51,339 nt of DNA, taken from Candidatus Taylorbacteria bacterium RIFCSPHIGHO2_01_FULL_51_15 (GTDB lineage: Bacteria > Patescibacteriota > Minisyncoccia > Phycocordibacterales > UBA10002). Position numbers and translations under genes: made by a program. The notes beneath the pieces are model-generated. The model was not told the origin of the DNA. It worked only from the letters and a program-made list of their open reading frames with translations, and ran no database searches. The DNA lies in the NCBI GenBank assembly GCA_001820935.1, contig MHRI01000011.1:2718-54056 (forward strand). Direction: 5' to 3'. Positions within the stretch are counted from its first letter, which is position 1. The number at the start of each line of letters is the position of its first letter. Positions 2,575-51,339 of this stretch are shown here, in pieces.

Positions 2575-2832
2575 ATGTTCTACTTCTACGTGTTGCAATC
2601 ACTCACGGACAAGGACTTGTACTTTGGATACACGGACAATCTGAAACGACGATTCAAAGAACATCATGACGGTCGAGTGATTGCAACACGCCGCCGCTTG
2701 CCAATGCATCTTGCATACTATGAGGCGTAAAGCGCGAAGAAAGACGCTAGAAATCGGGAGTTTCAGATTAAGCGGCGGTCTAAAGCACACATAGGTTTGA
2801 AATGTCGCATAATTAATAGTTTAAATCGGTAA
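2575..2832 (+). pseudogene. GIY-YIG (URI) nuclease family gene interrupted by an in-frame TAA
   Basis: MFYFYVLQSLTDKDLYFGYTDNLKRRFKEHHDG...LPMHLAYYEA, then TAA at 2728-2730. The same frame continues SAKKDARNREFQIKRRSKAHIGLKCRIINSLNR to TAA at 2830-2832. Together the two parts give a full-length ~85-aa GIY-YIG protein. Confidence 0.6.
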
Positions 2833-2887: not shown

Positions 2888-4099
2888 ATGTTTGACCTCA
2901 AAATAATCAATTCCGTCCTCGACCAACTCGAGGAAGAACGCGGCATCCCGCGCGATAAAGTGCTCGAAGCCATCGAGGCTGCGCTCGCGACGGCGTACAA
3001 AAAAGAATATGGCAAGAAGGGCCAGATTGTCCGGGCTAAATTTGATATTGGAAGTGGGGCAACCACCTTTAATCAGGTGAAGATCGTCGTCGACGAGACG
3101 CGCGTCATTCCGGAAACGGAAATCGAGAAAATGAAAGAAACGGAGAAAGAGCGCGATCCTAGCGATGAGCGCATTTATTTCAATCCCGAACACCACATCA
3201 TGATTCATGACGCGAAGAAGATAAAGAAAGACGCGGCCCTCGATGAGGAGATTGTCTTTCCGCTCGAAAGCAAGGGGGATTACGGACGTATCGCGGCGCA
3301 AACGGCGAAACAGGTGATTATTCAAAAAATCCGTGAAGCTGAAAAGACTTCGGTGATGACGGAGTACGGCGCAAGGCAAGGTGAGATCGTTTCGGGTACG
3401 GTGCAGCGCATAGAGCGCGGTAATCTCTTTATCGACATGGGTCGCGCGACAGGGCTTCTCCCCTATGAAGAGCAAATCCCCGGGGAGCGCTACCGTCAGG
3501 GCGAGCGTGTGCGTGCGTATCTCTATCGCGTGGAGGAGTCTCCCAAGGGTATTTTTCTTAAGCTGTCCCGATCGCACCCAAAATTCATTTACGAACTCTT
3601 CAAACAGGAGGCGCCCGAAGTCGCAAGTAGCGCTGTTGAAATCAAGGCGATAGCCCGCGAGCCGGGTTCCCGAACTAAAATCGCGGTGGCTTCGAATGAT
3701 CCGCATATTGACCCGGTTGGTTCTCTCGTGGGACAGCGCGGCGTGCGCGTGTCAACGGTGATGTCGGAACTTGGCGGCGAGAAAATAGATATCATTGAGT
3801 GGTCGCCGGAAGCGGCGAAATTCATAGAAGCGGCGCTCTCGCCTGCTGAAGTACTTTCCGTTAAAGTAGACGAGACAGGGAAAAAGGCCGTCGTAGAAGT
3901 AGCTGAAACCGAACAGTCGCTGGCCATTGGCAAAGGGGGCCAAAATGTCCGCCTCGCCGCGAAGCTCACCGGCTGGAAGATTGATATCCGCTCGGCCAAG
4001 AGTGAAGCCGCCGTGAAAACGGAAGTACCGGAAGCGGAACCAACCACCGACATCTCACAACCAACCACTGAAGAAACGCCGGGGGAGAAAAAAGAATAG
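2888..4099 (+). CDS. nusA: transcription termination/antitermination factor NusA
   Basis: 403 aa. N-terminal domain, S1-like segment (GEIVSGTVQRIERGNLFIDMG) and two KH segments (GSRTKIAV..DPVGSLVGQRGVRV; LAIGKGGQNVRLAAKLTGWKIDI). Confidence 0.9.
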   Translation: MFDLKIINSVLDQLEEERGIPRDKVLEAIEAALATAYKKEYGKKGQIVRAKFDIGSGATTFNQVKIVVDETRVIPETEIEKMKETEKERDPSDERIYFNPEHHIMIHDAKKIKKDAALDEEIVFPLESKGDYGRIAAQTAKQVIIQKIREAEKTSVMTEYGARQGEIVSGTVQRIERGNLFIDMGRATGLLPYEEQIPGERYRQGERVRAYLYRVEESPKGIFLKLSRSHPKFIYELFKQEAPEVASSAVEIKAIAREPGSRTKIAVASNDPHIDPVGSLVGQRGVRVSTVMSELGGEKIDIIEWSPEAAKFIEAALSPAEVLSVKVDETGKKAVVEVAETEQSLAIGKGGQNVRLAAKLTGWKIDIRSAKSEAAVKTEVPEAEPTTDISQPTTEETPGEKKE

Positions 4100-4113
4100 T
4101 CGTCTCCTCTCCT

Positions 4114-4141
4114 CACCCCTCCTCTCTAAGGAGGGGTGTTT
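4114..4141 (+). terminator. hairpin after nusA (family-E repeat word)
   Basis: cacccctcc / ggaggggtg form a 9-bp perfect stem, loop tctctaa, then ttt. Starts 15 nt after the nusA stop. Confidence 0.5.
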
Positions 4142-7023: not shown

Positions 7024-7054
7024 TAGGAGACACGGAGAAATCCGAAGCACGGTA

Positions 7055-7155
7055 CACAAAAACCAAACAAACATCCCAAAGCACAATATCCAAAAAGCCA
7101 AACGAGGAAGGAAGATTTGTGTTTTGTTTGGATACTGGGCGGTCTGTGCTTTGTG
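7055..7155. repeat. family-A word element, copy A1 (CCAAACAAA / AAAGCACA / TCCAAAAAGCCAAA words)
   Basis: Its reverse complement aligns at roughly 90 percent identity, with one 18-nt indel, to 8776..8896. Shares the core cccaaagcacaRtRtccaaaaRgccaaac with 42051..42114. Confidence 0.8.
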
Positions 7156-7169: not shown

Positions 7170-7454
7170 ATGTATCCAACCGAAGAAACCGGAGTCACAC
7201 CATTGCGGTCAATGCGGCAGGAGGATGCGGCGGAACAAACGCCTATCCCTAGGCCTCTCCAAAGCCTGCCCGCGACGCCAGAGAAATTTCTTCCGCTGCC
7301 ACGCCATATTTCATGGAGTACCGTCATTGGCATCGTGATCCTCGTCCTCTTTCTCATCCTGGCAGGGCTGTACACTTGGGGCGCCAAGCTTGCCAAAGAA
7401 GATGCTGTATTGCAAAATGCCGAAGTAGGAATTGAGGCGGAAAACACGTTTTAG
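7170..7454 (+). CDS. small single-pass membrane protein
   Basis: 94-aa ORF with one TM helix (WSTVIGIVILVLFLILAGLYTW). Weak call. Confidence 0.4.
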   Translation: MYPTEETGVTPLRSMRQEDAAEQTPIPRPLQSLPATPEKFLPLPRHISWSTVIGIVILVLFLILAGLYTWGAKLAKEDAVLQNAEVGIEAENTF

Positions 7455-7643: not shown

Positions 7644-7761
7644 GTCGGGGCGTCTGTCATTTGAGTTCTCGTGCCTGTGTTTTCCAGAGAGCGAGGAGTA
7701 GCAAGTGGCGTTGAGTTTTTGGTTTTTTGTGCCTGTCTGCGTTTTGTGCCTTTTTTGTGTT

Positions 7762-8772
7762 ATGCATTACACCATTAAAGAGAAAAAGTTGCTTCCCAAA
7801 TCACAGCTTCTTGTGACACTCGAGATCCAAAGCGAGGAGATAGCGCAGCACCGCGCCCATGTGCTTGGCCATCTGAAAAAGGACACCGAACTTCCTGGTT
7901 TTCGTAAAGGATTTGTGCCGGAAAAGATGATTCGCGAGCGCATGGGTGAGATGGCACTTTGGGAGGAGGCCGCGATGGAGGCGCTCTCGCACGTGCTTGC
8001 ACAGGTGGTAGAGGCGGAGAAGCTCCGGCTCATCGGCCGACCCAGTGTGGAGGTGAAAAAGCTCGCGCCAGATAATGCCGCCGAGCTTGCGGTTACCCTG
8101 ACGCTGTATCCCGAACTCTCGCTTCCTGACTACAAAAAGATTGCCGCAACGCACGGCGAGAAGAAACCAGAACCGGACGATGTCGATGAAAAAGAGATTG
8201 ATACCGTTGTGGCAGAAATTAAAAAACAGCATGAGGCTTCGGCGGGGAAAAAGGATTTTAACATTACGGATGAAACGGTGAAGGAGTTCGGCGAGTTTAA
8301 GACGGTTTCCGACTTTCGAGCAAAAGTTAAAGAAGGTCTTGCTTCACGTAAAGCAGAACGAAATCGCGAGAAACGTCGTGCGCAGCTTCTCGATGTGCTC
8401 GTGAATGAGAGCGGGGGGGAGATACCGGAGATGATGATTGAAAGTGAACTTTCGCGAATGGAAAATGAGTTTCGTGCGGAGATAGAACGCATGGGCGGGT
8501 CCTTCGAGAACTACCTAAAGGAGCTGAAGAAGGATGTGGCGACCTTGAAAGAGAGCTGGCGAGAGAGTGGGGAGCGGCGTGCAAGGCTGCAACTCATGCT
8601 CTTCCAAATAGCGCGTAAGGAATCCCTTGCCGCAACGAGAGAAGAAATTGAAAAGGAAGTGAAGCACCTTCTCGAGCACTACAAAGACGCAGATGAAGAA
8701 AACGCGCGGAGTTATGTTGAGACACTGCTCACGAACCAGAAAGTGCTGGAATTTCTAGAAAAACAAAAGTAG
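7762..8772 (+). CDS. tig: trigger factor lacking the PPIase domain
   Basis: N-terminal ribosome-binding signature LPGFRKGFVPEKMIRE followed by a C-terminal helical domain. Only 336 aa from ATG 7762. The upstream part of ORF 7705.. is repeat-word sequence. Confidence 0.8.
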   Translation: MHYTIKEKKLLPKSQLLVTLEIQSEEIAQHRAHVLGHLKKDTELPGFRKGFVPEKMIRERMGEMALWEEAAMEALSHVLAQVVEAEKLRLIGRPSVEVKKLAPDNAAELAVTLTLYPELSLPDYKKIAATHGEKKPEPDDVDEKEIDTVVAEIKKQHEASAGKKDFNITDETVKEFGEFKTVSDFRAKVKEGLASRKAERNREKRRAQLLDVLVNESGGEIPEMMIESELSRMENEFRAEIERMGGSFENYLKELKKDVATLKESWRESGERRARLQLMLFQIARKESLAATREEIEKEVKHLLEHYKDADEENARSYVETLLTNQKVLEFLEKQK

Positions 8773-8775: not shown

Positions 8776-8910
8776 CACAACAAAACACAATCCGCCCAGT
8801 ATCCAAACAAAACACAAACTTCCCAAAACACAAATCTTCCTTCCTCGTTTGGCTTTTTTGGATACTGTGCTTTGGTATGTTTGTTTGGTCTTTGTGTACT
8901 GTGCTTTTTG
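8776..8910. repeat. family-A word element, copy A2 (opposite orientation to A1)
   Basis: See 7055..7155. Fills the spacer between the tig stop and the rsmE stop. Confidence 0.8.
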
Positions 8911-12216: not shown

Positions 12217-12262
12217 ACATACGAAAACACAAATTAAAGTCCAACGAATGACTACGAATAAG
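12213..12262. repeat. left inverted arm of the rny-hup spacer (family B, ACGAAT words)
   Basis: 12213-12227 and 12242-12262 are exact reverse complements of 12643-12657 and 12606-12626. The arm starts at the rny stop codon. Confidence 0.8.
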
Positions 12263-12488
12263 AAACCGAGCATCTTCCCCTCCCCCAGCTCCCCTGCCAG
12301 AGGGGAGCTCCCGAGTCGGCGAGGGTGAGGGGTGTGAGCAAGGGGGAGATCAAGAAGGGGTTCTTCCTCCCCCCTTCCGCCAGCTAGCGGAATAATAAGC
12401 AATGAAAAAGCAGAAAGCACTAGAAACTTTTAGCGCTTTTTGATTTTTAGGACAGTGAACAGAGTTCTTGTCAACATTTTCGGAGGTA

Positions 12489-12605: not shown

Positions 12606-12657
12606 CTTATTCGTAGTCATTCGTTGATTCGTATCATTCGTATTTTCGTATGTTTAT
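12606..12657. repeat. right inverted arm of the rny-hup spacer (family B)
   Basis: Reverse complement of the left arm at both ends. Its core is 44/46 identical to 50900..50945 inside ORF 49812..51290. Ends 6 nt before the hup ATG. Confidence 0.8.
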
Positions 12658-12663
12658 CTACTT

Positions 12664-13133: not shown

Positions 13134-14393
13134 TTAACCTGCAAAGTGCTGCTGAACCCTATTCCACACTTCCGAATAAAACTTCGTGGGAAGTGAGATT
13201 CCATCCTTCACACAGTGATTGTTGAAGGCGTTGACGCGGTAGTTGCTGCTGTTCTGCCAGATCTCCCTAAGAGGCATCGTCCGAACATCGGGATACACCT
13301 CAAAATCCGGCGTGTCGTTCCCCGGACACCTCCAGACTCGTCCGTCCGCGTGAATGTACAGTCCGTGAGTCAGTTGATTGCATGGAGTGGTACCGATGTA
13401 GGGGTGCACTCCCTCCTCTTTGAGCTGCGGGAGGGTCATGACTCCTCGTTCAATCGCCCATGTGTACACGTCAACCGCGAGGTTGATGTAGCGCTCCACG
13501 AAGAGCTCCTCCATGGCGGAGCGTTCACCTGCGTGACCCTTGCCGCTTACCATTGTCGGCGGAAGATACGTGGGCATGTTTCTCTCCACGGCCCATTTGT
13601 ATATCTCAAACACGCCGCCGATGTTCTGATGAGTTACCGGATTGCATTGCACCGTCATGCGCTGGCACATGAGGTCCGCGTTCAGCCCCGCCCGGGCAAG
13701 CCGTTCGTAGGCGATGCACAGAGCCTCGTAATAATTGACGTGCGCCGCATCTTCCCTGTTTCGAATCGGAATGAATCGATTTTCCCACTCTGGGTCGAAC
13801 GAGCGACCTTCAACGTAGAGGTTCACATTGTGGTACTCAAGGATTCTCCGAAGCAATTCTTCCGACCCTATGCCGTGATACTTGTGCGCAAGCCAGTCAT
13901 TTCCGAGTACCGCCGCTTTGGTGAAGATACCCAGAATGATGTGGTGCCTGCGCGTGTACTCCAAGACACTCCAGAGTTCTTTCTTCTCCAAGAGTTCGCC
14001 CGGCCCAAGGAATTTGATTGACTCAAGACCGAGTTCGGGCGCTTGATCAAGAACCCTGAAAACCTCACTCAAGTAGAGAACGTAGTTCTTCAGCATCGCT
14101 TCATTGAAGCAGAGCGGACACTTCATCGTGCATTGATACCATTCCCCGAAAGCACGATTCGCTTCATCCGAGCCGGGAGGAAACTCATTAACCATTCTCG
14201 CGAAGTCATCGCCTGGAATGTTCACATCAAGCGTGAGCAGCTTTTTGATGCGTTTTCCTCCAATTTCAACTGTTTCTGTGTGCCGACCAGGAAGAAACGA
14301 CCAGCTCCGTGCCATCATCCGGTATCCCTCCGGGATCTGACCTTTAGGCGGAAGAATGGCGGGAATGTTCGGGAATTTGTTTACAAGTCGCAT
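13134..14393 (-). CDS. radical SAM protein with SPASM-like C-terminal Cys motifs
   Basis: CTMKCPLC matches CxxxCxxC. FLGPGELL is a GGEP-like motif. C-terminal segment CNQLTHGLYIHADGRVWRCPG...NNHC. The first ATG, at 14393, is used; the ORF track extends to a TTG at 14426. Confidence 0.75.
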   Translation of the reverse strand: MRLVNKFPNIPAILPPKGQIPEGYRMMARSWSFLPGRHTETVEIGGKRIKKLLTLDVNIPGDDFARMVNEFPPGSDEANRAFGEWYQCTMKCPLCFNEAMLKNYVLYLSEVFRVLDQAPELGLESIKFLGPGELLEKKELWSVLEYTRRHHIILGIFTKAAVLGNDWLAHKYHGIGSEELLRRILEYHNVNLYVEGRSFDPEWENRFIPIRNREDAAHVNYYEALCIAYERLARAGLNADLMCQRMTVQCNPVTHQNIGGVFEIYKWAVERNMPTYLPPTMVSGKGHAGERSAMEELFVERYINLAVDVYTWAIERGVMTLPQLKEEGVHPYIGTTPCNQLTHGLYIHADGRVWRCPGNDTPDFEVYPDVRTMPLREIWQNSSNYRVNAFNNHCVKDGISLPTKFYSEVWNRVQQHFAG

Positions 14394-14478
14394 ATGGAGA
14401 TTCTGTTTGGGTTGTTCGGGTTTCAAAGAACTTCAGGTGTCACAATCGTGAGCTGAGTCTCCTTGACTTTCTGGATAG

Positions 14479-14508
14479 ATTATATCGTAATAGTCAGTTG
14501 ATTGTCAA
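14479..14508 (-). promoter_or_regulatory. near-consensus promoter for the radical SAM gene
   Basis: On the - strand: TTGACA, 18-nt spacer, TATAAT. Confidence 0.45.
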
Positions 14509-14591
14509 AGATAATCATCAGATGGAATGTCTACCAAAGCCTTATTTATCAATATTATTAGGTGATATGGACATACTTTTGTGGAAACAGA

Positions 14592-14620
14592 TTGACACAA
14601 TTGCCGTTGTGAGACATACT
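14592..14620 (+). promoter_or_regulatory. candidate promoter for the TrmB-like regulator (would give a near-leaderless mRNA)
   Basis: TTGACA, 17-nt spacer, CATACT. The ATG at 14628 is only 8 nt after the -10 element. Confidence 0.35.
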
Positions 14621-14627
14621 TACAGTT

Positions 14628-15410
14628 ATGCATGACCTCATAAAGGAACTACCGCTGACTCTTCAGAGCCTTGGCTTCAGTGAAAAGGAAGCTACCGTAT
14701 ATGTGGCTTTACTTGAACTTGGCCGTGGAACCGTGACAGAGATCGCACGAAGGGCGGGTATCAACCGCACGACCGGCTATGACATTCTCGATTCCCTTGC
14801 AGGTAAGGGAGTGGTGAACATATCCGGCAAAGAACCAAAACAGGAATATGCGGCTGAACCCCCAGAAGCCGTTGTGCAGTACTTGAAAAAAGAGTTAGGG
14901 GTGGCTAAAGAACGGATTGAAAAAGCGGAAGACTTCCTTCCCCGACTTCGCTCCGTACACGCAACCCAAAATCGCCCACGTATTAAGTTTTACGAGGGAA
15001 CCGAGGGGCTCAAACAGGTGTATGAGGACACACTTACTTCGAGTGAACCGATCCGAGCCTATGCGAACGCCGATGAAGTGCAGAAAGGCATACCGAACTA
15101 CTTCCCTGAGTATTACAAACGAAGAGCGCGAAAGGGTATTTCCATTCGAGCGATATTTCCCCAAACAACTGCGGGAATCGCGCGAAGCGCCTTTGATTTC
15201 GAAGAAAAACGAGAGGTGGCGTTTGTTCCGGCGGACAAATACTATTTTTCTCCAGAAATAAACATTTATGACAACAAGGTTATGATCGCCTCATGGCGAG
15301 AGAAACTTGGGGTCATTATGGAGAGCGCGGAAATTGCCGATGCGATGAAAAAAATCTATGAGCTCGCTTGGGCTGAAGCGAAGCGACTAGACAAGAATCT
15401 TCGTACGTAA
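14628..15410 (+). CDS. TrmB family transcriptional regulator
   Basis: N-terminal wHTH: LGFSEKEATVYVALLELGRGTVTEIARRAGINRTTGYDILDSLAGKGVV. 260 aa. Confidence 0.75.
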   Translation: MHDLIKELPLTLQSLGFSEKEATVYVALLELGRGTVTEIARRAGINRTTGYDILDSLAGKGVVNISGKEPKQEYAAEPPEAVVQYLKKELGVAKERIEKAEDFLPRLRSVHATQNRPRIKFYEGTEGLKQVYEDTLTSSEPIRAYANADEVQKGIPNYFPEYYKRRARKGISIRAIFPQTTAGIARSAFDFEEKREVAFVPADKYYFSPEINIYDNKVMIASWREKLGVIMESAEIADAMKKIYELAWAEAKRLDKNLRT

Positions 15411-15436
15411 TGTTCCAGACTATGACAATTGACGTT

Positions 15437-15507
15437 TGCGGGCGCCGGGAATCGAACCCGGACGTACTGCTTGGAAGGCAATCGTTCTACCATTAAACCA
15501 CGCCCGC
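15437..15507 (-). tRNA. tRNA-Gly (anticodon TCC)
   Basis: The reverse complement gcgggcgtggtttaatggtagaacgattgccttccaagcagtacgtccgggttcgattcccggcgcccgca folds as a cloverleaf. Anticodon loop cTTCCaa, T-loop ttcgatt. Confidence 0.93.
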
Positions 15508-15601
15508 GGTGCTCCGAATCGTAGCAAAAAAGAGACTTACCCGCAATTTTGCGTGAAGGTGTATTCGTCATAAAGTAGCGGGCCCTGTATAATCCATTTC
15601 T

Positions 15602-16726
15602 ATGTTCACGCTCCGTATGAGATATGTTGCGTTTGCAATGCTCGCTCTCTTTTCCGCATTTGGCACAGCGTTATTTACTGCTGAGTCTCTGAGTGCGGAT
15701 ACCGTTATCCCACCTCCGTTTCATTTTGAGCGGACATTGTGGGTTGGCGCGCGAGGAAGCGATGTGCGCTACCTGCAGACGCTCCTCAACCGCGATAGTG
15801 ACACAGCCGTTGGTACGCCAGGACTCCCGGGAAGCTCCGGCAACGAGACCGACTTTTTCGGCGCGGCAACACGAAGAGCTGTAGTGAAGTTCCAGGAAAA
15901 ATACGCCGCGGAGGTCCTAAAGCCCGCGGGTCTCACGCGAGGCACGGGTTTTGTGGGTTCCTTCACGATAAAAAAGCTAAACTCACTTCTAGAAAATGCT
16001 AGGGGGGAAGCGTTGGAAGTACCTCCACCAGAAGTACCGCTCCCACCCCGGCAGATCGACGCCGCACCGAAATTTTCTTTTGATGAGCTTAATTCGCGCA
16101 CGCGCGAAGCGCTCGTAAATATCATCTGCACGAGTAAGCAAGGTGGATCGTTTAACCCCGTATCTGGAAGTGGGGTGCTTGTGGATTCGCGTGGGGTGAT
16201 CCTCACTAACGCGCATGTGGGGCAGTACTTCTTACTTGGAGATTATCCAACGCCTGATTTTATTGACTGTCTCATTCGCACCGGAGAACCTGCGCGAAAC
16301 CGCTACAAAGCGAAGGTGCTCTACCTTTCTTTGCCTTGGATCAAAGAGAATGCGAAAGAGATAAACGCGGAGCGCGCGACCGGAACGGGAGAAAACGATT
16401 TTGCGTTACTCCTCATCACCGATTCGATAAACGCGGAGCTCCCACTTCCACCTGCCTTCCCCTTCCTTCCTATGAAGAGTGCACATGCGCCTGTTCGAAC
16501 GGGGGCGAAAGTACTTGCGGCCGGATACCCGGCGGGATTTCTTGGCGGTATTAGCATCCAGAGAGATTTGTACCCTAGTTCGTCCGTGGTCTCTGTGGAA
16601 GCACAGTACAGTTTCGACGAGGGTGCAGCCGACGTACTCTCGATCGGCGGCTCTGTCCTAGCTCAACAGGGTTCAAGCGGAGGCGCGGTGGTAAACGATG
16701 AGGGTCGTCTGGTTGAACCCTGTTGA
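15602..16726 (+). CDS. secreted peptidoglycan-binding-domain / trypsin-like serine protease, apparently C-terminally truncated
   Basis: Signal peptide. PG_binding_1-like segment (GSDVRYLQTLLN...FGAATRRAVVKFQ). Protease motifs GSGVLVDSRGVILTNAHV and QQGSSGGAVVN. The ORF stops only 16 aa after the catalytic Ser. Confidence 0.7.
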   Translation: MFTLRMRYVAFAMLALFSAFGTALFTAESLSADTVIPPPFHFERTLWVGARGSDVRYLQTLLNRDSDTAVGTPGLPGSSGNETDFFGAATRRAVVKFQEKYAAEVLKPAGLTRGTGFVGSFTIKKLNSLLENARGEALEVPPPEVPLPPRQIDAAPKFSFDELNSRTREALVNIICTSKQGGSFNPVSGSGVLVDSRGVILTNAHVGQYFLLGDYPTPDFIDCLIRTGEPARNRYKAKVLYLSLPWIKENAKEINAERATGTGENDFALLLITDSINAELPLPPAFPFLPMKSAHAPVRTGAKVLAAGYPAGFLGGISIQRDLYPSSSVVSVEAQYSFDEGAADVLSIGGSVLAQQGSSGGAVVNDEGRLVEPC

Positions 16727-16808
16727 GACAATCAGAAAAATTCTCACAGACGCGATCGAGGGGGATTAGAAGTGTGCACTCTGATCAAAGACGGCTCGGT
16801 CTCAGAAG

Positions 16809-17123
16809 TCACGAGGGATACTGAAAAGGCTGCTCTGAAAGTTCAATGAGGCGCTCCATGTTGTCTTCTTTGGCGACATCCTGCGCGCGAATGAAACCGC
16901 ACCGAGTGCATTTATGTATGATTCGGGAAACTCCGCCTGAAGAAACGAGGGCACTTTGCGGCTCCATAGAGCCTCCGCAGAGGGAAGCGCGATCACCAGG
17001 GTTCTCGTCGACATGTTTGCTCCAAAGGCACGCGGGACAGTGGTTGGTATACCCGCTGCCGGTTACACGCGCGCCGCACTCCTCACAGACAAAGTCTTCG
17101 ATGTTACGAATAAAGCGTTTCAT
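16809..17123 (-). CDS. RNHCP domain zinc-ribbon protein
   Basis: CEECGARVTGSGYTNHCPACLWSKHVD, plus a second Cys pair (CTRCGF). 104 aa. Confidence 0.7.
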   Translation of the reverse strand: MKRFIRNIEDFVCEECGARVTGSGYTNHCPACLWSKHVDENPGDRASLCGGSMEPQSALVSSGGVSRIIHKCTRCGFIRAQDVAKEDNMERLIELSEQPFQYPS

Positions 17124-17126
17124 AGA

Positions 17127-18044
17127 CTACTTTGCGAGTACAAATACCCTGCCTTTTCTTTCCAAGAAACCTTCAGCGGTGAGCTGTAAAAATATCTCCT
17201 TGATGGGAAATGCGAACTCTTGCGCTCTAAAGTCGGAGAAAGCCACGACGTCGTTTTCTGTAGCCCGCCGCAGTATTGCCCCTCGAAGCTCTCTTTTTGA
17301 TCCTTTGAACTTCGATTGCCTCAAGTATGCTCTCGCGCGAACGTTTGGATTGCCTACAGTTTTCTTAAGCATCGCTCCATAATCCATGAGCGCGTGGTAC
17401 CACTCTCGTATCTGTTGTCGACTTCCGATTCTTTTCCCCACCTGCCCGAGGAGGGGTGCCGAGTCCGCGCCGCGCCCCGTAACCGTCTTCGTGGTGCTGG
17501 GGAGGCGGGGTGGTGGGAGCAAAGGGGTAGTTATTTGGATCACCTCTAAGATCTCCGCATCCCGTACCTTCCACTTGCCCTTGAAGAAGGAATGAAGGTA
17601 TACGGTTCGAATATTTGTCTCGATAATTGGGGAGGCGACGCCAAAGGCAAACGCGGCGATGGCGCCCGCAGTGTATGGGCCAACGCCGGGAAGCGCGTCT
17701 ATGGCGGCGATACTCCGAGGAAAGATGCCGCGATGCTTACTCACAATTATTTCCGCCGCGTTTTTCAGAGCGAGCGCCCGCCGATTATAGCCAAGCCCCT
17801 GCCACGCCTTGAGGACGTCGCGGACTGGCGCCTTGGCAAGTGCGTAGGGAGTCGGAAATTTCTCGAGAAAGGCGGTGAAAAACGGGATGACCCTATCAGC
17901 CTGCGTTTGCTGAAGCATTATTTCCGAAACAAGAATCGCGTACGGATCCTTCGTCTCTCGCCACGGAAAATTCCGCTTGTGCGTTCGATAGTAGCTCGTG
18001 ATCGTCTTTTGAAACGCCTTCACGCTCGATGTGCTAAGTTTCAT
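17127..18044 (-). CDS. MutY-like HhH-GPD DNA glycosylase without Fe-S cysteines
   Basis: FPWRETKDPYAILVSEIMLQQTQADRV...LPGVGPYTAGAIAAFAFG. There is no C-x6-C-x2-C-x5-C motif and no NUDIX-like C-terminal domain. Contains a low-complexity insert made of repeat words. Confidence 0.75.
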   Translation of the reverse strand: MKLSTSSVKAFQKTITSYYRTHKRNFPWRETKDPYAILVSEIMLQQTQADRVIPFFTAFLEKFPTPYALAKAPVRDVLKAWQGLGYNRRALALKNAAEIIVSKHRGIFPRSIAAIDALPGVGPYTAGAIAAFAFGVASPIIETNIRTVYLHSFFKGKWKVRDAEILEVIQITTPLLPPPRLPSTTKTVTGRGADSAPLLGQVGKRIGSRQQIREWYHALMDYGAMLKKTVGNPNVRARAYLRQSKFKGSKRELRGAILRRATENDVVAFSDFRAQEFAFPIKEIFLQLTAEGFLERKGRVFVLAK

Positions 18045-21091: not shown

Positions 21092-21144
21092 GAATCTCGG
21101 AAATTGATTAGCTTACGATACTATGCATTTTATTTGATAGAAGG

Positions 21145-21258
21145 AACAAAGCACAGACCGCACAAAAATCCAAACAAAACACAACTGCTCAAAACACAAA
21201 TTATTTTCTGCCTGTTTGGTCTTTGTCCGCCAGCTGGCGGATTGTGCTTTGTGCTTTC
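21145..21258. repeat. family-A word element, copy A3, carrying the 16-nt palindrome
   Basis: Starts caaagcacagaccgc...tccaaacaaaacacaa, like the reverse complement of A1. The outer arms caaagcacagaccgc / gcggattgtgctttg pair at 13/15. Contains tccgccagctggcgga at 21226-21241. Confidence 0.75.
21226..21241. repeat. 16-nt perfect palindrome TCCGCCAGCTGGCGGA (copy 1)
   Basis: Identical copies at 30863-30878 and 50750-50765. One-mismatch variants at 12376-12391 and 35023-35037. Confidence 0.9.
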
Positions 21259-30840: not shown

Positions 30841-30850
30841 TGAAGTAAAA

Positions 30851-30980
30851 CCCAAAGCCTGATCCGCCAGCTGGCGGACAAAAAACCAAACAAACATCCC
30901 AAAATCCCAAAACAAAGACGGTTTGTATTTTGGATAATTGTGTTTTGTTTGGTTCTTTGGACGGCCTGTGTTTTGTGTAT
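30851..30980. repeat. family-A word element, copy A4, with the 16-nt palindrome at 30863-30878
   Basis: aaaaaccaaacaaacatcccaaaa..., as in A1, with the right arm ttggataattgtgttttgtttgg. Confidence 0.75.
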
Positions 30981-31016
30981 TCTTTGCCGCAGTCATACTT
31001 GCGATATACTTACCCT

Positions 31017-31973
31017 ATGTCTCCGCAATCTTCAGAGCCGAAACCGCCGAGTGAACTCAAGCGTATTCGAACGTATCAAAGCGACGTCGAGGAGCTCCTG
31101 CAAAAACAGAACGTCTCTAAGGCCTCCATTGCACTTGCGGAAAGTGAGCGGCAGGTGGAAAAACAAAAAAAAGAGGAGGTAAAAAAGACGGAGACCTCTC
31201 CTCGGGAGCCTGATCCGTCAAGGGTGTTCAAGATATCAGGGGAATTGCCGACTGGAACAGGCGTGAATCTCCGCCGCTCCGTCATGGTTTTCGTAGGTCT
31301 CTTCGTGCTCGGGGGAGTAGCGGCTGGAGCGTTCTTCTCTTTTAAAAAAGATGAGTTACCTGTTGGTCCCGCTCCGATAGCGAGAGTCTCCGAGACCCCG
31401 ACCATCGTACTTAGCGGGGGAGAGAAGAGGGCAGGGGCGATTAAGGCGATACAGCAGGGTCTCTCGGCGTTATCGGTTCCGCAAAATGAGCTTCGTCGTG
31501 CTCTGCTACGACGAGGAGAAGCACTGATTACCACACCAGAATTATTCGAGCTCCTTGAAACCGGTGCGTCGCCCGCTCTGATTCGAGCGCTCACAAAATG
31601 GCCTACACTCGGCGTACATGGATTTCAGGGCGGGCAACCGTTTCTCCTCTTTGGCGTCACTTCGTACGACCATGCGTTTGCCGGTATGCTCGCGTGGGAG
31701 CAAAGACTAGTTGCCGACATTGCCCCTCTCTTTGGAGTGTCTATAAGAGAAGTGCTCGCAAATGTGGGCAGCACGACTGCGGAGGCGCTGCAGAACACCA
31801 TAGAGATAAAAGATGTCATTATCCGCAACAAGGATGGCCGCGCGGTATTTGGTCCTGGAGGGGATATACTCTTTGTGTACTCTTTTGTAGATAAGGAAAC
31901 GCTTGTACTCACGACAGGGGAGGACACCATGCGAGCCTTGATTAGCAAAGCGGGAGGAGGTCAACTCAAATGA
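31017..31973 (+). CDS. single-pass membrane protein, unknown function
   Basis: 318 aa from ATG 31017. Charged N-terminus, one TM (VMVFVGLFVLGGVAAGAFFSF), extracytoplasmic domain. The upstream part of ORF 30930.. is repeat sequence. Confidence 0.6.
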   Translation: MSPQSSEPKPPSELKRIRTYQSDVEELLQKQNVSKASIALAESERQVEKQKKEEVKKTETSPREPDPSRVFKISGELPTGTGVNLRRSVMVFVGLFVLGGVAAGAFFSFKKDELPVGPAPIARVSETPTIVLSGGEKRAGAIKAIQQGLSALSVPQNELRRALLRRGEALITTPELFELLETGASPALIRALTKWPTLGVHGFQGGQPFLLFGVTSYDHAFAGMLAWEQRLVADIAPLFGVSIREVLANVGSTTAEALQNTIEIKDVIIRNKDGRAVFGPGGDILFVYSFVDKETLVLTTGEDTMRALISKAGGGQLK

Positions 31974-32095
31974 AATATGAAGTATGGGATATGGAATATT
32001 AAAGAGGTTCGATTAGGTATTACATATTCCATACTTCATATCCCATATTTCATATTCCATGCTCCATATTTCATTTGATATGGTATACTGCTTTT

Positions 32096-32452
32096 ATGAC
32101 GATAGATACCAACGTATTTCAAAAGAAATTGCTCGCGGAGAAAGAGCTGGTGGAAAAAGAGCTGGCGACCGTTGGCCGGCGTAATCCGCAAAACGCCGCG
32201 GATTGGGAGCCGATCTCCGGAGTGATGGAGCGGCCGGCGGAGCGCGATGAGGTGGCTGATAAACTTGAATCTTTTGAAGAGAATGTGGCGATCGTGCGCC
32301 AGCTTGAACTTCGTCTTGCGGAAATTCAAAATGCGCTCGAGCGAGTGCAAGGTGGAACATACGGAACTTGTAGTGTGTGTGGTAAGGAGATAGAAACGGC
32401 ACGCCTTGAAGCGAATCCTGCGGCAGCGACGTGCAAGCAACACTTAAAGTAA
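32096..32452 (+). CDS. TraR/DksA family zinc-finger protein
   Basis: Coiled-coil N-terminus followed by GTYGTCSVCGKEIETARLEANPAAATCKQH. Confidence 0.75.
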   Translation: MTIDTNVFQKKLLAEKELVEKELATVGRRNPQNAADWEPISGVMERPAERDEVADKLESFEENVAIVRQLELRLAEIQNALERVQGGTYGTCSVCGKEIETARLEANPAAATCKQHLK

Positions 32453-32582
32453 TTATCGAATACCAAATTTCGAATCTTGAAAAATGTTTAAACGCGGGCA
32501 ACCAGGAATAATAACTTATTCTCTTTATTGGGTATTCGATATTTTTAGACATTAGATATTCGAAATTCGATATTTCTCTTCC

Positions 32583-34157: not shown

Positions 34158-34255
34158 TAGAAGGTAGCTAGTAGTAAGTAGTTTATCGGAAAAGAAAAAC
34201 CGCAACGAGGCCAAGTCGCTGCGGGTGAAATTGTACTCTCTCGATGCTTTCTGAC

Positions 34256-36414: not shown

Positions 36415-36803
36415 CCGAGCAATCCACCCCTGTGGATAACGAAAAGAGATGAAATATGAAACATGAAATATGAACTATTAGATATAGGTGATTGAGAAGA
36501 CAAGCGATTTATTATTCCATAGTACATATTACATAATTCATCCATACATTATGGTTCTAGGAGTCCTGAGGCTTTGCGAAGGGCAACGAAAACGAAGCCT
36601 AAATATCGAATCTCGAATACCTAATCTTGAAAAAATCTGAATACAAAATACTAAACAAAATCCTCCGTCTCGAAGACTCGACCACCCTCCTTTAGAAAAG
36701 GAGGAATTCAGAAATATGTTTGTAGTTTCTTCTTTTCTATTGAGTTTTTTCGAAATTCGAAATTCGGTATTCGATATTTTTTTTGTGCTATAGTGTCCAC
36801 GCT

Positions 36804-38908: not shown

Positions 38909-39685
38909 ATGTTTAAAAAGAAATCCTTAGGTCAACACTTCCTCCGCGATCCGAAGATTCTCGGCAAGATTGTCGCGGCGGGGAAACTGACACTTGAAGA
39001 CTCTGTACTAGAAATCGGTCCCGGGGAAGGAGGGCTCACGATGCTCTTGCTGGCGAAGGTAAGGAAGGTCGTCGCGGTGGAGAAAGATGATCGCTTGATT
39101 CCCATACTGCGAGAAAGATTCGCTTCGGAAATTGCCTCGGGCAGACTTGAGCTTATCCACGCCGACATTCTTGACTTCTCCCCTACTAACTACTCACTAC
39201 TAGCTACTAACTACAAAGTGGTCGCCAACATCCCCTACTACATTACGGGCGCGCTCATGCGGAAATTTCTGCAGGAGGGACCAGAGCCTTGCATGATGGT
39301 GCTTCTCGTGCAAAAGGAGGTGGCAAGACGGATTGTGGCACAGGACGGTAGGGAGAGTATTCTTTCAATAAGCGTAAAAGCGTATGGAACTCCAAGATAC
39401 GTGGATACGGTCAAGGCGGGCTCATTTTCGCCACCACCGAACGTAGATTCAGCGATTATCGCAATTGAAGGAATTTCGAAAGAGTTTTTTACTCATTGCG
39501 GCGAGAAAAAATTCTTCGCGCTTCTCAAAAAGGGGTTCGCTCACCCAAGAAAGCTCCTCGCGTCAAACCTTGGGATTGAAACGGGGGTACTCGAAACGGC
39601 CGGCATCGCTCCAAACGCTCGGGCGGAAGTTCTCTCTCCAGAAGCTTGGAAAGATCTCGCGACTAAAATACTAGACGGACGCTAA
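38909..39685 (+). CDS. rsmA: 16S rRNA (adenine1518/1519-N6)-dimethyltransferase
   Basis: MFKKKSLGQHFLRDPKILGKIV...VLEIGPGEGGLT...VVANIPYYITGAL. Confidence 0.9.
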   Translation: MFKKKSLGQHFLRDPKILGKIVAAGKLTLEDSVLEIGPGEGGLTMLLLAKVRKVVAVEKDDRLIPILRERFASEIASGRLELIHADILDFSPTNYSLLATNYKVVANIPYYITGALMRKFLQEGPEPCMMVLLVQKEVARRIVAQDGRESILSISVKAYGTPRYVDTVKAGSFSPPPNVDSAIIAIEGISKEFFTHCGEKKFFALLKKGFAHPRKLLASNLGIETGVLETAGIAPNARAEVLSPEAWKDLATKILDGR

Positions 39686-42050: not shown

Positions 42051-42114
42051 AAAGCACAGTGTCCAAAAAGCCAAATAATGAAACAACCCAAAGCACAGTG
42101 TCCAAAAGGCCAAA
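42051..42114. repeat. family-A left arm: 25-nt direct repeat aaagcacagtgtccaaaaRgccaaa x2
   Basis: 42051-42075 and 42090-42114 are 24/25 identical. The same core occurs in A1 (7075-7105) and, inverted, in A2. Confidence 0.8.
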
Positions 42115-42137
42115 CAAAAAAGTAGAATTCACAAAAA

Positions 42138-42512
42138 ATGGGACAGCGTATGGAATCAAAGGAGACAAACAGATATCGAGAGTTGGAAAATCGCACGGCA
42201 ACATTTGCAAAGCAAACGATTGGAGTTTGCCTTAAATTACCGAGGAATAGAGTAAACGATCCACTAGTTAGCCAAGTTATTAGAGCCTCGGGGTCAGTCG
42301 GAGCAAATTATCGTGAAGCAAACGAAGCGTTGGGAAAGAAAGACTTTGTGTATCGTTTAGGGGTTGCTCGTAAGGAGGCGAAGGAAGCACAGTACTGGTT
42401 TGAACTACTAGTGGAGGCAAATCCCCTGCAAAGGGAAGCATTAACGGTGCTTTTGAGAGAGGCGGAAGAACTTCGCAACATCTTATCTGCAATCATAAAC
42501 AAGGTCTCTTAG
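42138..42512 (+). CDS. four-helix-bundle protein (23S rRNA intervening-sequence protein / Avd family)
   Basis: 124 aa. Family-typical pattern: LENRTATFAKQTIGVCLKLPRNRVNDPLVSQVIRASGSVGANYREANEALGKKDFVYRLGVARKEAKEAQYWFELL. Confidence 0.8.
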   Translation: MGQRMESKETNRYRELENRTATFAKQTIGVCLKLPRNRVNDPLVSQVIRASGSVGANYREANEALGKKDFVYRLGVARKEAKEAQYWFELLVEANPLQREALTVLLREAEELRNILSAIINKVS

Positions 42513-42516
42513 CCCC

Positions 42517-42550
42517 TTTGTTTGGCTTTTTGGGTATTGTGTTTTGTGCT
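42517..42550. repeat. family-A right arm (inverted relative to 42051..42119)
   Basis: tttgtttggctttttggg is complementary to ccaaaaagccaaa / gccaaacaaa of the left arm. Starts 5 nt after the ORF stop. Confidence 0.7.
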
Positions 42551-49811: not shown

Positions 49812-51290
49812 ATGGATCCTCAAGACGCAAGAATACAACTGAATATTTTCATCGACAATCTGCCCGACAGTGTTTTCATTCCGCTCCGTGATAGAAATAT
49901 TGACCCAAGTCTCGTTACGACCGACATTACCTCGGCGTATGAATTCGTTATTCGAGAAACAGGACACATTGTGGAAGGTGTGCGGCGTGTGCTGGCAGGA
50001 GAAGATTCACCAAACAACTTCGTGGCGTTCATTCAAAAAGACGAACATATAGAAGAAGATAACCGTCAGAAGATACCTGTGCTTGCATATGAAATCCAGA
50101 CAAAGGTATTCGATCCAGTACTGCCGATTTTGAAACAAGCGGGGTTCACAATAAAGGAAGGAAGGGTGCCGGAGCCGCCGAAATCGGTGGTGAAGGATGA
50201 AGTAAGAAGTGTGAATTATGGGAGGGAGACACCCCCCGCTTCCGAAGACGGAGGCGCCCCCTTTGCTAAGGGAGATATCCGACCACCTATAGATGAAAAG
50301 AATGCTCGATCCCTCCTTCGCATCGCGGCCGGCACCACATATACCGAAGGGGACCTTAGGAGCGCCTTCGAGGCATTACCGCAAGGACTCCGGCAATCAA
50401 TCTCATCGGTTGATACCGCGAACGCCATCCAGGACGTCGCCAAAAAGCATCTCTTGCATGTTGACCAGATGGCGGCACTCGCGAGCGAAACGGGGCTGGT
50501 GCTTCTTGGGCTCACGCATCCTAGGGATTTTATCCTAAATCTTGCAAGACGCCTGCGGGTGCCTGAAGAAAAGGCGCGAGAGGTCGCAAGAGACATAAGC
50601 GGGCAGATACTTTCGAAAGTCCGAGAAGCTCTCCGCGGTCTTCACGAAGACGTGAAGCCGCCGAAAGAAAATACCGAATATCGAAGTTCGAATATCGAAA
50701 AATCTCGAACCACACAACAAGAGAACACTGAACTAAACGCTAAACGCTATCCGCCAGCTGGCGGACTAAACGCTTCTCTCAAAACTCCCTATTCTGCCGG
50801 AGCAAAATGGAATGTGGGAGAAAATATCCTTGCTAAACAAGCCGAGGAAAAACTCTCTCGGGAGGAGATGCTTCATGGGATTGAAAATCCTAAATCGATA
50901 TACGAAAATACGAATTATACGAATCAACGAATGGCTACGAATAAGACGAGGGCGTCAGTAGCCGAGAAGAAAGAAGCGGTGGGACCGACGGGGTGGAAAG
51001 CGGTGCAGAATGAAGTACGAAGTATGAATTATGAAGTAGGGAAGAGCCAAATCCCATCGAAACCAGTCGTTCCCGCATCCCCCATTACCGCGCCTAGACC
51101 GTCCATGACGGCGGAAAAAGTTCGACCGCAAAGCGAGGGAGATACCCCACCTCAACCCTCACCTCTAAAGAGGGGAGGAAAGGCCGATGACGCGGCAAGC
51201 TTCTTGGAGCAGAAATTGGAACAACCCATGTCCATTCCGAGGGAGGAGAAGCGGTATACGACAGATCCGTATAGAGAGCCACTCGCGTAA
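49812..51290 (+). CDS. hypothetical protein with repeat-word mosaic in its C-terminal half
   Basis: 492-aa ORF. The N-terminal 270 aa look like ordinary protein. From ~50660 the ORF runs through five intergenic repeat families without a stop and ends ...RYTTDPYREPLA. Confidence 0.6.
   Translation: MDPQDARIQLNIFIDNLPDSVFIPLRDRNIDPSLVTTDITSAYEFVIRETGHIVEGVRRVLAGEDSPNNFVAFIQKDEHIEEDNRQKIPVLAYEIQTKVFDPVLPILKQAGFTIKEGRVPEPPKSVVKDEVRSVNYGRETPPASEDGGAPFAKGDIRPPIDEKNARSLLRIAAGTTYTEGDLRSAFEALPQGLRQSISSVDTANAIQDVAKKHLLHVDQMAALASETGLVLLGLTHPRDFILNLARRLRVPEEKAREVARDISGQILSKVREALRGLHEDVKPPKENTEYRSSNIEKSRTTQQENTELNAKRYPPAGGLNASLKTPYSAGAKWNVGENILAKQAEEKLSREEMLHGIENPKSIYENTNYTNQRMATNKTRASVAEKKEAVGPTGWKAVQNEVRSMNYEVGKSQIPSKPVVPASPITAPRPSMTAEKVRPQSEGDTPPQPSPLKRGGKADDAASFLEQKLEQPMSIPREEKRYTTDPYREPLA
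50750..50765. repeat. 16-nt palindrome TCCGCCAGCTGGCGGA inside a coding region
   Basis: Identical to 21226-21241 and 30863-30878. Here it is translated as YPPAGGL. Confidence 0.9.
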
Positions 51291-51339
51291 GCGCGAGTGT
51301 CGAATTATGAAGTATGAATACTGAATTAAGGGAAAGAAA

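Follow-up and report, generated by a model that had tools for sequence, protein, structure and literature searches.

Single heptamer-word repeat arms probably translated within the disordered linkers of a conserved gene of a Patescibacteria type IV secretion locus

The linkers of a real gene of a type IV secretion system (T4SS) locus, open reading frame (ORF) 49812..51290, probably carry translated single arms made of heptamer words, which would have been copied or exchanged without a dedicated transposase and would be either constrained as nucleic acid or re-seeded. Coordinates are those of the window, i.e., the whole 51,339-nucleotide stretch of DNA that was analyzed. A first-pass annotation had noticed that sequences resembling intergenic spacers occur in frame inside this ORF; at the level of sequence, this observation mostly holds and is confirmed in part.

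The ORF has an architecture of two helical domains, long disordered linkers, and few short conserved motifs, with the following features:

49812..51290, + strand: gene encoding a conserved 492-aa protein of Parcubacteria, function unassigned, in a T4SS-like locus immediately 5′ of PrgI/VirB3
49812..50171, + strand: all-helical domain 1, aa 1-120, pLDDT 85-93, conserved in the ortholog alignment
50289..50651, + strand: all-helical domain 2, aa 160-280, pLDDT 80-91, with many invariant columns
50784..50834, + strand: conserved island TPYSAGAKWNVGENIL, columns T325-G336 invariant or near-invariant
50979..50999, + strand: conserved island VGPTGWK, near-invariant, with synonymous sites that differ among orthologs
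51192..51290, + strand: conserved C-terminal motif DAASFLEQKLEQPMSIPREEKRYTTDPYREPLA and stop codon, near-invariant F464...P490, identical in P0086
51279..51298, + strand: small hairpin CACTCGCG-TAAG-CGCGAGTG whose loop holds the stop codon, read from sequence, identical in L001

Searches with the 492-aa protein gave zero matches in Pfam and no fold match using Foldseek against the PDB. There are >50 full-length homologs with 40-55% identity, and the neighbors in the locus are PrgI, TraC-like, and VirB4-like genes. These comparisons argue that ORF 49812..51290 is a genuine full-length gene of a Patescibacteria type IV secretion locus. All 492 codons are open, as had been claimed, and the DPYREPLA tail is conserved in orthologs. 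The C-terminal motif DFLxQKL...EEKRYTxDPYREPL, located 3′ of every block described below, is found together with the conserved islands in >30 orthologs, which contradicts a true stop before ~50650. Translation to the annotated end is thus supported by ortholog conservation. The proposal that the repeats lie in a disordered linker also stands: in the AlphaFold model, pLDDT is <50 at aa 125-156, 280-324, 362-388, and 399-461, and every block is inside these low-confidence stretches. The blocks are as follows:

50189..50226, + strand: block iv_b, aa 126-139, VKDEVRSVNYGR, in linker 1, GAAGTAT/GAATTAT heptamer words, pLDDT <50
50664..50712, + strand: block i, aa 285-301, KENTEYRSSNIEKSRT, linker 2 start, ATCGAAT-type heptamer words, z 13
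50729..50777, + strand: block ii, aa 306-322, ELNAKRYPPAGGLNAS, CTAAACG heptamer words flanking the palindrome TCCGCCAGCTGGCGGA, single open frame
50891..50946, + strand: block iii, aa 360-379, KSIYENTNYTNQRMATNK, ACGAAT-word family, z 21
51002..51046, + strand: block iv_a, aa 397-412, VQNEVRSMNYEVGK, GAAGTAC/GAAGTAT/GAATTAT/GAAGTAG heptamers, period-7 array
51144..51178, + strand: block v, aa 445-456, TPPQPSPLKRG, C-rich run and TCTAAAGAGGGG, marginal member

Outside the ORF, the same vocabulary is present as paired inverted arms of intergenic hairpins, some of which enclose a PF05635 gene. The fold z-scores of the hairpins are as low as −7, and the intergenic copies of the block families contain stops. 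The relevant copies in the window are:

12219..12263, + strand: family iii copy, sense arm, directly 3′ of rny
12606..12660, − strand: family iii copy, antisense arm, directly 5′ of hup, with stops in all three sense-equivalent frames
21139..21257, − strand: intergenic hairpin with the palindrome at 21226-21241
30841..30983, + strand: intergenic hairpin 3′ of pnp, with the palindrome at 30863-30878 within CAAAGCAC-type words
31966..32078, + strand: family iv hairpin, ATGAAAT/ATGAAGT heptamer words, MFE −44 kcal/mol, z −6.9
32446..32582, + strand: intergenic spacer with both family i arms, fold z −1.6
36742..36784, − strand: family i copy, arm directly 5′ of uvrD

Of the five repeat families originally proposed, i to iv match intergenic DNA far above shuffled controls, while family v is marginal. 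The strongest case is block iii, for which the reported 44/46 identity between 50900-50945 and the reverse complement of 12606-12651 was reproduced and extends to 50891-50945 versus 12606-12660 (55 nt, 89%, E 1e-14); a second copy of this family in direct orientation is at 12219-12263 (E 1e-5). Block i indeed resembles spacer DNA, but its best partners are not the stretches cited in the first-pass annotation, although they lie in the same spacers: 50664-50712 is 86-87% identical over 39-43 nt to the reverse complement of 36742-36784 (E 6e-8), with further matches at 32519-32575 (reverse complement) and 32454-32485. In block ii, the perfect 16-nt palindrome TCCGCCAGCTGGCGGA was found at 50750-50765; it recurs exactly at 21226 and 30863 and in variant form at 12376 and 35022, and its 43-nt context is 81% identical to 30841-30883 (E 4e-5). 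The two copies of block iv are 88% identical to each other across 32 nt (50189-50220 versus 51002-51033), and each is similar to 51299-51336 and to the hairpin at 31966-32078 (E ~1e-3), as had been suggested, although iv_b is not significant alone (z 1.9 against intergenic DNA, compared with z 5.9 for iv_a). Block iv_a resembles 51299-51336 and 32027-32066, and block iv_b, which has a single open sense frame, is 75.7% identical to 51297-51333. The similarity claimed for block v amounts to 25/31 identity to 4105-4136 and z = 6.4 versus mononucleotide shuffles, whereas BLAST gave no hit at E ≤ 0.01. We note that block v overlaps the semi-conserved protein motif RPQSE..TPP. As a control, the ORF was locally shuffled 100 times, and at most one of these versions gave a hit at E ≤ 1e-3; the similarity of blocks i to iv to spacers persists under this check. 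ORF 49812..51290 is the only one among the 41 genes of the window with several internal matches to intergenic DNA. The gene names nusA, rny, and hup used in the first-pass annotation agree with ours.

The ORF linkers are written largely in a clade-wide vocabulary of degenerate 7-nt word arrays, with words including GAAGTAT, ATCGAAT, CTAAACG, and ACGAAT, plus the 16-nt GC-rich palindrome. The ORF linkers had the highest self-match at lag 7 (0.369), followed by intergenic DNA (0.300) and the remaining coding DNA (0.244). Ten ortholog genes contain 19 arrays at lag 7 and zero at lags 3, 5, 6, and 8-12, and intergenic DNA contains 6 lag-7 arrays and zero arrays at lags 5, 6, and 8-11; shuffled sequences gave ~0 arrays. 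The ortholog genes have ~21 arrays per 17.5 kb, compared with 7 per 158 kb for the rest of the coding DNA. At the site of block i, orthologs have arrays of other words, e.g., GAATCTC×4, GAAATCC×4, and AAGCTCG×4. An in-frame array is also present in ksgA. We set it aside as a clean insertion because the loop at that site in B. subtilis KsgA is of similar length, and a net insertion in ksgA is, therefore, not demonstrated.

Comparison with orthologs supports that the block DNA is unusually well conserved and that the DNA rather than the peptide is the unit of conservation. Between orthologs, block DNA is 88-96% identical, whereas domain 2 of the same orthologs, which is the best conserved part of the protein, has a DNA identity of only 66-75% and a third-position identity of 0.37-0.52 in its core (saturated). 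The earlier suggestion that the inserts are tolerated, or selected, is accordingly too weak in its first half. The higher conservation of block DNA than of folded-domain DNA points to constraint at the nucleotide level or to repeated re-seeding from a conserved pool. Block ii shares 45/48 positions with a copy that occupies another linker in L002 and 42/46 positions with L001, and the block iii family recurs in L006 at the corresponding site (38/43) and in L009 behind VGPTGW (42/52). For block iv_a, the identity is 43/45 in L002, 37/40 in L011, and 34/37 in L012 with zero synonymous differences, while the neighboring VGPTGWK codons vary synonymously. No antisense partner of block iv_a was detected within ±10 kb in L002, L011, and L012, and local RNA pairing thus fails to explain its conservation. 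Part of the cross-genome block identity could come from peptide-level selection plus codon bias.

The anticipated discrete in-frame indels are exemplified by a single 48-nt indel between loci that are 99.94% identical, and protein lengths within one 90% cluster are 543, 559, and 575 aa. In P0086, aa 1-360 are identical, and the region of blocks iii and iv_a is swapped for other word blocks; P0086 and P0001, an alternative allele compared at the protein level only, both have another block in place of block iii. By these comparisons, blocks are gained, lost, and swapped as discrete units between close strains. The patchy distribution of blocks on the gene tree and the presence of one family in different linkers of different orthologs also speak for turnover. 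Several arrays at fixed linker positions with differing words may be long-term residents evolving in concert, since the same position with different words across orthologs argues for resident arrays rather than fresh insertions.

The vocabulary also frames PF05635 genes, as in these cassettes of the window:

42089..42546, + strand: complete PF05635 cassette, gene 42138..42512 enclosed by arms 42089-42118 and 42517-42546
51299..51339, + strand: PF05635 (23S rRNA IVS protein) cassette, with left arm, heptamer words, and first codons, continuing past the window end

Inverted heptamer arms flank 11/12 PF05635 genes; PF05635 was confirmed by Pfam, and the duplex energy of the cassette arms is −31 kcal/mol. 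As in IVS-type elements, a PF05635 ORF lies between inverted stem-forming flanks, but the cassettes are located between protein-coding genes and not in helix 9, 25, or 45 of 23S rRNA. The cassette at 51299 begins just 3′ of the stop codon of ORF 49812..51290, and the order in L015 (100% identical) is IVP gene, inverted right arm, and PrgI. Between L015 and L001, the IVP gene has 77% DNA identity with third positions at 0.48, and the arms are almost unchanged; the IVP protein has 90% aa identity versus the 48% third-position identity. These values indicate strong purifying selection on the IVP protein and, judged from L015 versus L001, constraint on the cassette arms. The synonymous sites of IVP are saturated, and we therefore rejected the idea that the cassette passed horizontally between the lineages of the window and L001 in recent times. 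In the lineage of the window, the right arm of the cassette is predicted to be able to pair with block iv_a. Comparing the linker vocabulary with the adjacent cassette in the same genome gave no diagonal enrichment, and the vocabulary is common across genomes.

To account for these observations, we suggest that blocks would be copied into or exchanged within linkers via slippage of heptamer arrays, while ectopic recombination or gene conversion with dispersed copies would also move them, all with no dedicated transposase. Selection would then retain only frame-preserving and stop-free variants. The arms are predicted to be translated in whichever frame lacks stops, and the words would be constrained as nucleic acid or re-seeded repeatedly from constrained hairpin arms. 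Target-site duplications, clear microhomology, and recombination junctions were not found at the blocks. More tentatively, it is conceivable that the clade keeps a vocabulary of heptanucleotide hairpin arms under nucleotide selection that frames mobile PF05635 cassettes, and that single arms are exported and translated as linkers, with dual use as nucleic acid signal and protein; the factor reading the signal would then possibly be the IVP protein or RNase III.

We weighed these proposals against the possibility that the blocks are true mobile elements similar to Rickettsia palindromic elements (RPEs) or MITEs, i.e., non-autonomous elements that transpose and land in frame by chance. The block distribution on the gene tree is patchy, one repeat family occupies different linkers in different orthologs, blocks are replaced in otherwise identical strains, the 16-nt palindrome occurs in several unrelated word contexts, and PF05635 subfamily and arm words move together to different sites, all of which are in agreement with such elements. 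We nevertheless consider them unlikely. The blocks are single sense arms of 35-56 nt with no fixed length, of which the sole palindrome is the 16-nt one in block ii; neither an inverted partner arm nor terminal inverted repeats (TIRs) are present inside the ORF, no target duplication is visible, and same-site arrays show concerted word change across orthologs. The TIRs and target-site duplication expected of MITEs are, thus, lacking for the ORF blocks, and no transposase family turned up among the window ORFs that were annotated. Alternatively, the peptides ELNAKRYPPAGGLNAS, NEVRSMNYE, and TNQRMATN could be functional short linear motifs, with the spacer similarity being incidental or stemming from pieces of genes. 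Many orthologs contain identical peptide modules in the same frame, and the 492-aa protein has other clearly conserved short motifs; however, family i is translated in other frames in L002, L007, and L009, and families ii and iv always use their one open frame, a constancy that is accounted for by stops in the two remaining frames. Together with block codons free of synonymous variation next to conserved codons that vary, a period of 7 with no triplet-multiple periods, and intergenic copies that are stop-containing paired hairpin arms, this makes selection on the peptides a rather improbable explanation.

Slippage of non-triplet heptamer tracts might also switch the C-terminal part on and off, as at a contingency locus. 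Perfect (7-nt)×4 tracts are present in several orthologs, heptanucleotide coding tracts are known as switches, as in neuO, and in L016 a 49-nt (7×7) stretch of the linker-1 array is deleted, which leaves the gene in two parts of 150 and 362 aa. We did not retain this deletion as evidence of heptamer indels or phase variation; the NCBI copy of the scaffold (L019) has Ns at the same stretch, and the L016 allele is, therefore, unreliable. Moreover, no ±7-nt variants were seen among near-identical loci, and the tracts are short and, in this window, degenerate, such that we regard switching as very improbable. The junctions of the 48-nt and 49-nt indels showed no duplication. Finally, all data are metagenome assemblies, in which repeats can collapse or mis-join, and the ORF could be over-extended, fused, or mis-assembled across repeats. 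Some contigs of relatives are broken or mis-joined at repeats (L017, L020, and L019), and P0064 and L020 were set aside as contig-end or mis-join artifacts. An artifact in the window itself is extremely unlikely: L015, an independent contig, matches the 3′ half of the ORF and the DNA beyond it at 100% identity, P0002 is 100% identical, and the architecture and C terminus are common to >30 orthologs. A metagenome scan for close relatives returned one short contig.

If true, our preferred reading of copied or exchanged single arms would place this lineage next to Rickettsia as a second well-documented case of dispersed non-coding repeats turned into translated protein segments, with a different sequence class. 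Non-triplet 7-nt arrays reside in a conserved gene of ultra-small, genome-reduced bacteria, and the blocks are the best conserved DNA within the least conserved part of the protein, which points to an unrecognized function at the nucleic acid level or to active homogenization or re-seeding. The tie to the poorly understood PF05635 family, with arms at 11/12 genes, offers a handle on the role of this family. Were the dual use as signal and protein to hold, it would represent a previously undescribed route by which selfish or regulatory repeats remodel the linkers of a T4SS component. From a practical perspective, heptamer repeats explain contig breaks, N-masked stretches, and over-extended ORF starts in the metagenome-assembled genomes of this group.

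A literature search returned no account of such translated heptamer repeats in CPR/Patescibacteria, and we compared the blocks with related systems. The heptanucleotide tracts of neuO are long and perfect, and their copy number switches expression. Here, the 7-nt unit is similarly translated in all three phases, giving a peptide period of 7 residues, but switching of unit number is not demonstrated for ORF 49812..51290. In Borgs, genic repeat units are reportedly divisible by three and arise locally. These fast-evolving genic nucleotide repeats generate disordered protein segments (PMC9879509). The unit here is instead 7 nt, and its sequences are shared with dispersed intergenic hairpins.

Small palindromic repeats nested in heptamer arrays are said to have been described in Nostoc by Elhai et al. 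in 2008. The cyanobacterial STRR and the heptameric SSRs of Xanthomonas and Nostoc have a period of 7, are over-represented in intergenic DNA, and vary between close relatives, and the arrays are sometimes inverted and able to form stem-loops (PMC4692102). The blocks share with them the tandem 7-nt arrays and the intergenic enrichment. However, descriptions of STRR and SSRs place them in intergenic DNA, with each genome having one or a few types of word, whereas here there are many word families, PF05635 cassette arms, and predicted translation inside a conserved gene. The 23S rRNA IVS of Coxiella and Leptospira encodes PF05635/S23p and is considered a selfish element that RNase III excises (PMC4990558), and PF05635 occurs in rRNA insertions of CPR (PMC11270868). 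The cassettes resemble it in that their inverted flanks form a long stem with a PF05635 gene in its loop; they differ in lying between protein-coding genes, in having arms made of heptamer arrays, and in encoding an IVP under strong purifying selection.

The parallel with Rickettsia drawn in the first-pass annotation stands in that copies are both non-coding and in-frame coding, and fails in that a fixed unit of ~100-150 bp, TIRs, and a partner arm are lacking. RPEs are dispersed families located between genes and in frame inside genes, where a peptide is added and the protein is not destroyed; they comprise about ten families of ~150-bp palindromic units, each with its own conserved ORF (PMC10969869). 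Instead of foldable 100-150 bp units, the blocks here are 35-56 nt single heptamer-array arms, concentrated in the disordered linkers of one gene family and partly fixed in position. The RPE feature of one peptide per family holds for families ii and iv but not for family i. The RPE families are set apart from the blocks here by their published description. We read the blocks as intragenic repeat colonization of a new sort that differs from RPEs in sequence class, and for which we infer the mechanism and any function.

The window (50% GC), from a Parcubacteria/Patescibacteria genome, contains the housekeeping genes nusA, rny, hup, tig, pnp, ksgA, and uvrD parted by short spacers. ORF 49812..51290 encodes a 492-aa protein, which matched no family in a Pfam search and no fold using Foldseek against the PDB (best E value 0.5). 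We identified >50 homologs in Taylorbacteria and other Parcubacteria MAGs, mostly full length (460-620 aa) and with 40-55% identity to the ORF protein. In the relatives, the ortholog lies downstream of genes for three large conserved proteins and upstream of those for PrgI/VirB3, a TraC-like protein, and a VirB4-like ATPase; this neighborhood is the T4SS locus of Patescibacteria (PMC12102498). In L002/L003, two of these related loci, the VirB4-like ATPase has an intein bearing a LAGLIDADG domain (13550-17155), and the operon is interspersed with small PDDEXK_3 and DUF559 nuclease-like genes. An alignment of orthologs (A1) and an AlphaFold model concur on the architecture of the protein:

aa 1-120, helical domain 1 (pLDDT 80-93 for both domains)
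aa 160-280, helical domain 2
aa 125-156, 280-324, 362-388, and 399-461, variable linkers between the conserved parts (pLDDT <50)
short conserved islands in A1: TPYSAGAKWNxGENIL, LSRxEVLRGIENP, VGPTGWKP, RPQSE, and C-terminal DFLxQKL..P..EEKRYTxDPYREPL

Because the C-terminus is conserved 3' of all repeat blocks, the frame appears to be read through to the annotated stop codon. The independent contig L015 and the ortholog protein P0002, both 100% identical to the window, back this reading; thus, the possibility that the true stop lies before ~50650 fails, and the full-length ORF of the first-pass annotation stands. An 8-bp GC-rich hairpin (51279-51298; CACTCGCG-TAAG-CGCGAGTG) holds the stop codon in its loop and is identical in the related locus L001, although the gene is only 55% identical there at the protein level.

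The first-pass annotation also proposed that intergenic repeat families occur in frame in the disordered part of a real protein, and our analyses support this core idea. All blocks map to the low-confidence linkers of the AlphaFold model:

50189-50226, forward strand, block iv_b
50664-50712, forward strand, block i
50729-50777, forward strand, block ii
50891-50946, forward strand, block iii
51002-51046, forward strand, block iv_a
51144-51178, forward strand, block v

The reported 44/46 match of block iii to the reverse complement of 12606-12651 grows to 55 nt at 89% identity against the reverse complement of 12606-12660 (E value 1e-14); a direct copy is present at 12219-12263, and these two intergenic copies are arms bracketing the rny-hup spacer. 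Likewise, block i resembles spacers as claimed, with arms matched in those at 36.7 kb and 32.5 kb (E values 6e-8 to 1e-3), and block ii contains the perfect palindrome TCCGCCAGCTGGCGGA, of which the 51 kb holds two additional exact copies and two variants, all intergenic. Blocks iv_a and iv_b are 88% identical over 32 nt, and both show the expected likeness to the hairpin at 31966-32078 and to the DNA right after the stop codon. The proposed match of block v to the hairpin downstream of nusA is marginal, i.e., 25/31 to 4105-4136 but short of BLAST significance. The similarities persist in comparison with shuffled controls, as locally shuffled ORFs almost never yielded such matches (z-scores of 10-21 for blocks i-iii).

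Among the 41 genes in the window, only ORF 49812..51290 has several internal spacer matches; the remaining matches comprise ORF starts mechanically over-extended into hairpin arms and one ksgA array. The TTG starts of three mechanically called ORFs (30930, 38849, and 42518) run back into hairpin arms; their real starts lie downstream, and the repeat matches there are therefore intergenic. In ksgA (true start near 38912), an in-frame array of CTACTAA words at 39182-39217, 95% identical over 20 nt to spacer 34164-34183, encodes PTNYSLLATNY in the variable loop ahead of the KsgA VVANIPYY motif, making ksgA a probable second gene with a translated array. A short repeat, GAGGGAGAyAyCCC(C), is present in three copies in ORF 49812..51290 (50222-50235, 50269-50284, and 51135-51151), beside blocks iv_b and v, and is akin to a GKGETTP/GTPFGKGE 48-nt module of variable copy number in L002 and L004.

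The repeat words have a period of 7 nt. Lag-7 self-identity was 0.369 in the ORF linkers, 0.300 in intergenic DNA, and 0.244 in other coding DNA. Using a threshold of 17/21 matches, we identified 6 lag-7 arrays in intergenic DNA, where lags 5, 6, and 8-11 yielded none, and 19 lag-7 arrays in ten ortholog genes, where lags 3, 5, 6, and 8-12 yielded none; shuffled controls gave ~0. All orthologs examined have 1-3 linker arrays, often perfect fourfold tracts, with words such as GAATCTC, GAAATCC (twice within one gene), AGATTCA, and AAGCTCG, and non-ortholog coding DNA in ~158 kb of loci contains almost no arrays. Since this coding region lacks periodicity in multiples of three, the arrays obey a nucleic acid rule and not a protein rule. 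Across orthologs, arrays occupy matching positions in linker 1 and where linker 2 begins, but their words differ around a common CGAA core, as expected if a resident array evolves in concert.

Within the ORF, we found no inverted partner for any block, and the blocks are single sense arms. Stop codons interrupt the intergenic copies but not those in the ORF. For families ii and iv, a single sense frame is free of stops, and it is the one used in every case; in family i, none of the three frames is closed, and L002, L007, and L009 read it in different frames. Together, these observations argue that the inherited unit is DNA and not peptide. Ortholog comparisons gave block DNA identities of 88-96% (L002: 43/45 for iv_a and 45/48 for ii; L006: 38/43 for iii), while the best conserved protein domain has a DNA identity of 66-75% and a third-position identity of 0.37-0.52. 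Block iv_a has zero synonymous changes across four lineages, while the adjoining VGPTGWK codons vary. This high conservation implies that the words may be under constraint as nucleic acid or may be continually re-seeded from arms that are constrained. The blocks also turn over, with one family occupying different linkers in different orthologs: block ii has its best match after IENP in L001, L002, and L006 and lies after domain 2 in the window, and block iii follows VGPTGW in L009. Their distribution is patchy on a domain-based tree. L002 and L004 are 99.94% identical save one 48-nt in-frame module, and a single 90% cluster includes proteins of 543, 559, and 575 aa. By protein comparison, the orthologs P0086 and P0001 do not differ from the window protein in aa 1-360 or in the last 30 residues, but in them other word blocks replace block iii and the region around block iv_a.

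The spacers fold as long imperfect hairpins (z-scores down to −7), both arms of which are inverted heptamer arrays. In the window and related loci, 11 of 12 PF05635 genes (23S rRNA IVS protein [IVP]), including that of the cassette at 42089-42546, lie between such arms, and these cassettes are placed between ordinary genes. The arm word family co-varies with the PF05635 subfamily, and a given type is found at sites that differ between genomes. Positions 51299-51339 represent the left arm and start of a cassette continued at L015 556-997, where the PF05635 gene and the right arm are followed by prgI. Between L015 and L001, this IVP is 90% identical in protein but only 48% at third codon positions, supporting purifying selection and, with synonymous sites saturated, a selected gene instead of a decaying selfish ORF; as the cassette arms and the stop-codon hairpin are nearly unchanged, the arms are under nucleotide-level constraint. 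The same IVP gene has TAG in the window lineage (L015 887-892) and TGG (Trp) in L001, and the downstream sequence still aligns in frame, pointing to a nonsense mutation of recent origin or possibly to read-through. In the window lineage, the right arm has a predicted pairing of −31 kcal/mol with its own left arm and of −25 and −28 kcal/mol with in-ORF copies, with which it could pair almost as well; because block iv_a persists, with no local partner, in relatives that lack the cassette, we do not rely on this pairing. Elsewhere in the window, a ~110-nt hairpin of CAAAGCAC words is present twice in inverted orientation (7045-7154 and 8780-8906; 92-100% identity), flanking a segment with a small ORF for a membrane protein (7170..7451) and the gene for trigger factor (7705..8772). 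At 2538-2858, a 33-nt inverted repeat (2538-2570 and 2826-2858) encloses a truncated GIY-YIG nuclease ORF (2575..2730; PF01541, E value 8.5e-9), a further case of a hairpin-flanked cassette with a small nuclease-type gene.

All sequences are from metagenome assemblies. We discounted a 49-nt (7 × 7) deletion splitting the gene in L016, because the NCBI copy of that scaffold is N-masked at this position; further variant alleles were artifacts of contig ends and were not counted. Assemblies of relatives are interrupted, masked with Ns, or diverted to another locus precisely at the linker-1 repeat modules (L017, about 2900-3057; L019, N-run; L020, 1-340), e.g., at the CCCCCTTTnGTAAGGGGG hairpin in a module also found outside the gene, which makes the repeats a practical cause of fragmented MAGs.

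We infer that the blocks most likely arose by a process in which slippage would occur within heptamer arrays, ectopic recombination or conversion would take place with dispersed copies, and selection would retain open, frame-preserving variants. We found no paper on translated heptamer-word repeats in the Patescibacteria literature, our coverage of which is incomplete. The suggested analogy to Rickettsia palindromic elements is not supported, as those are fixed palindromic elements of about 150 bp (PMC10969869), whereas the blocks are heptanucleotide arrays plus a short palindrome. Sequences of this class have been described between the genes of cyanobacteria and Xanthomonas (PMC4692102); here, the class is linked to PF05635 cassettes, which resemble rRNA intervening sequences (PMC4990558; PMC11270868).
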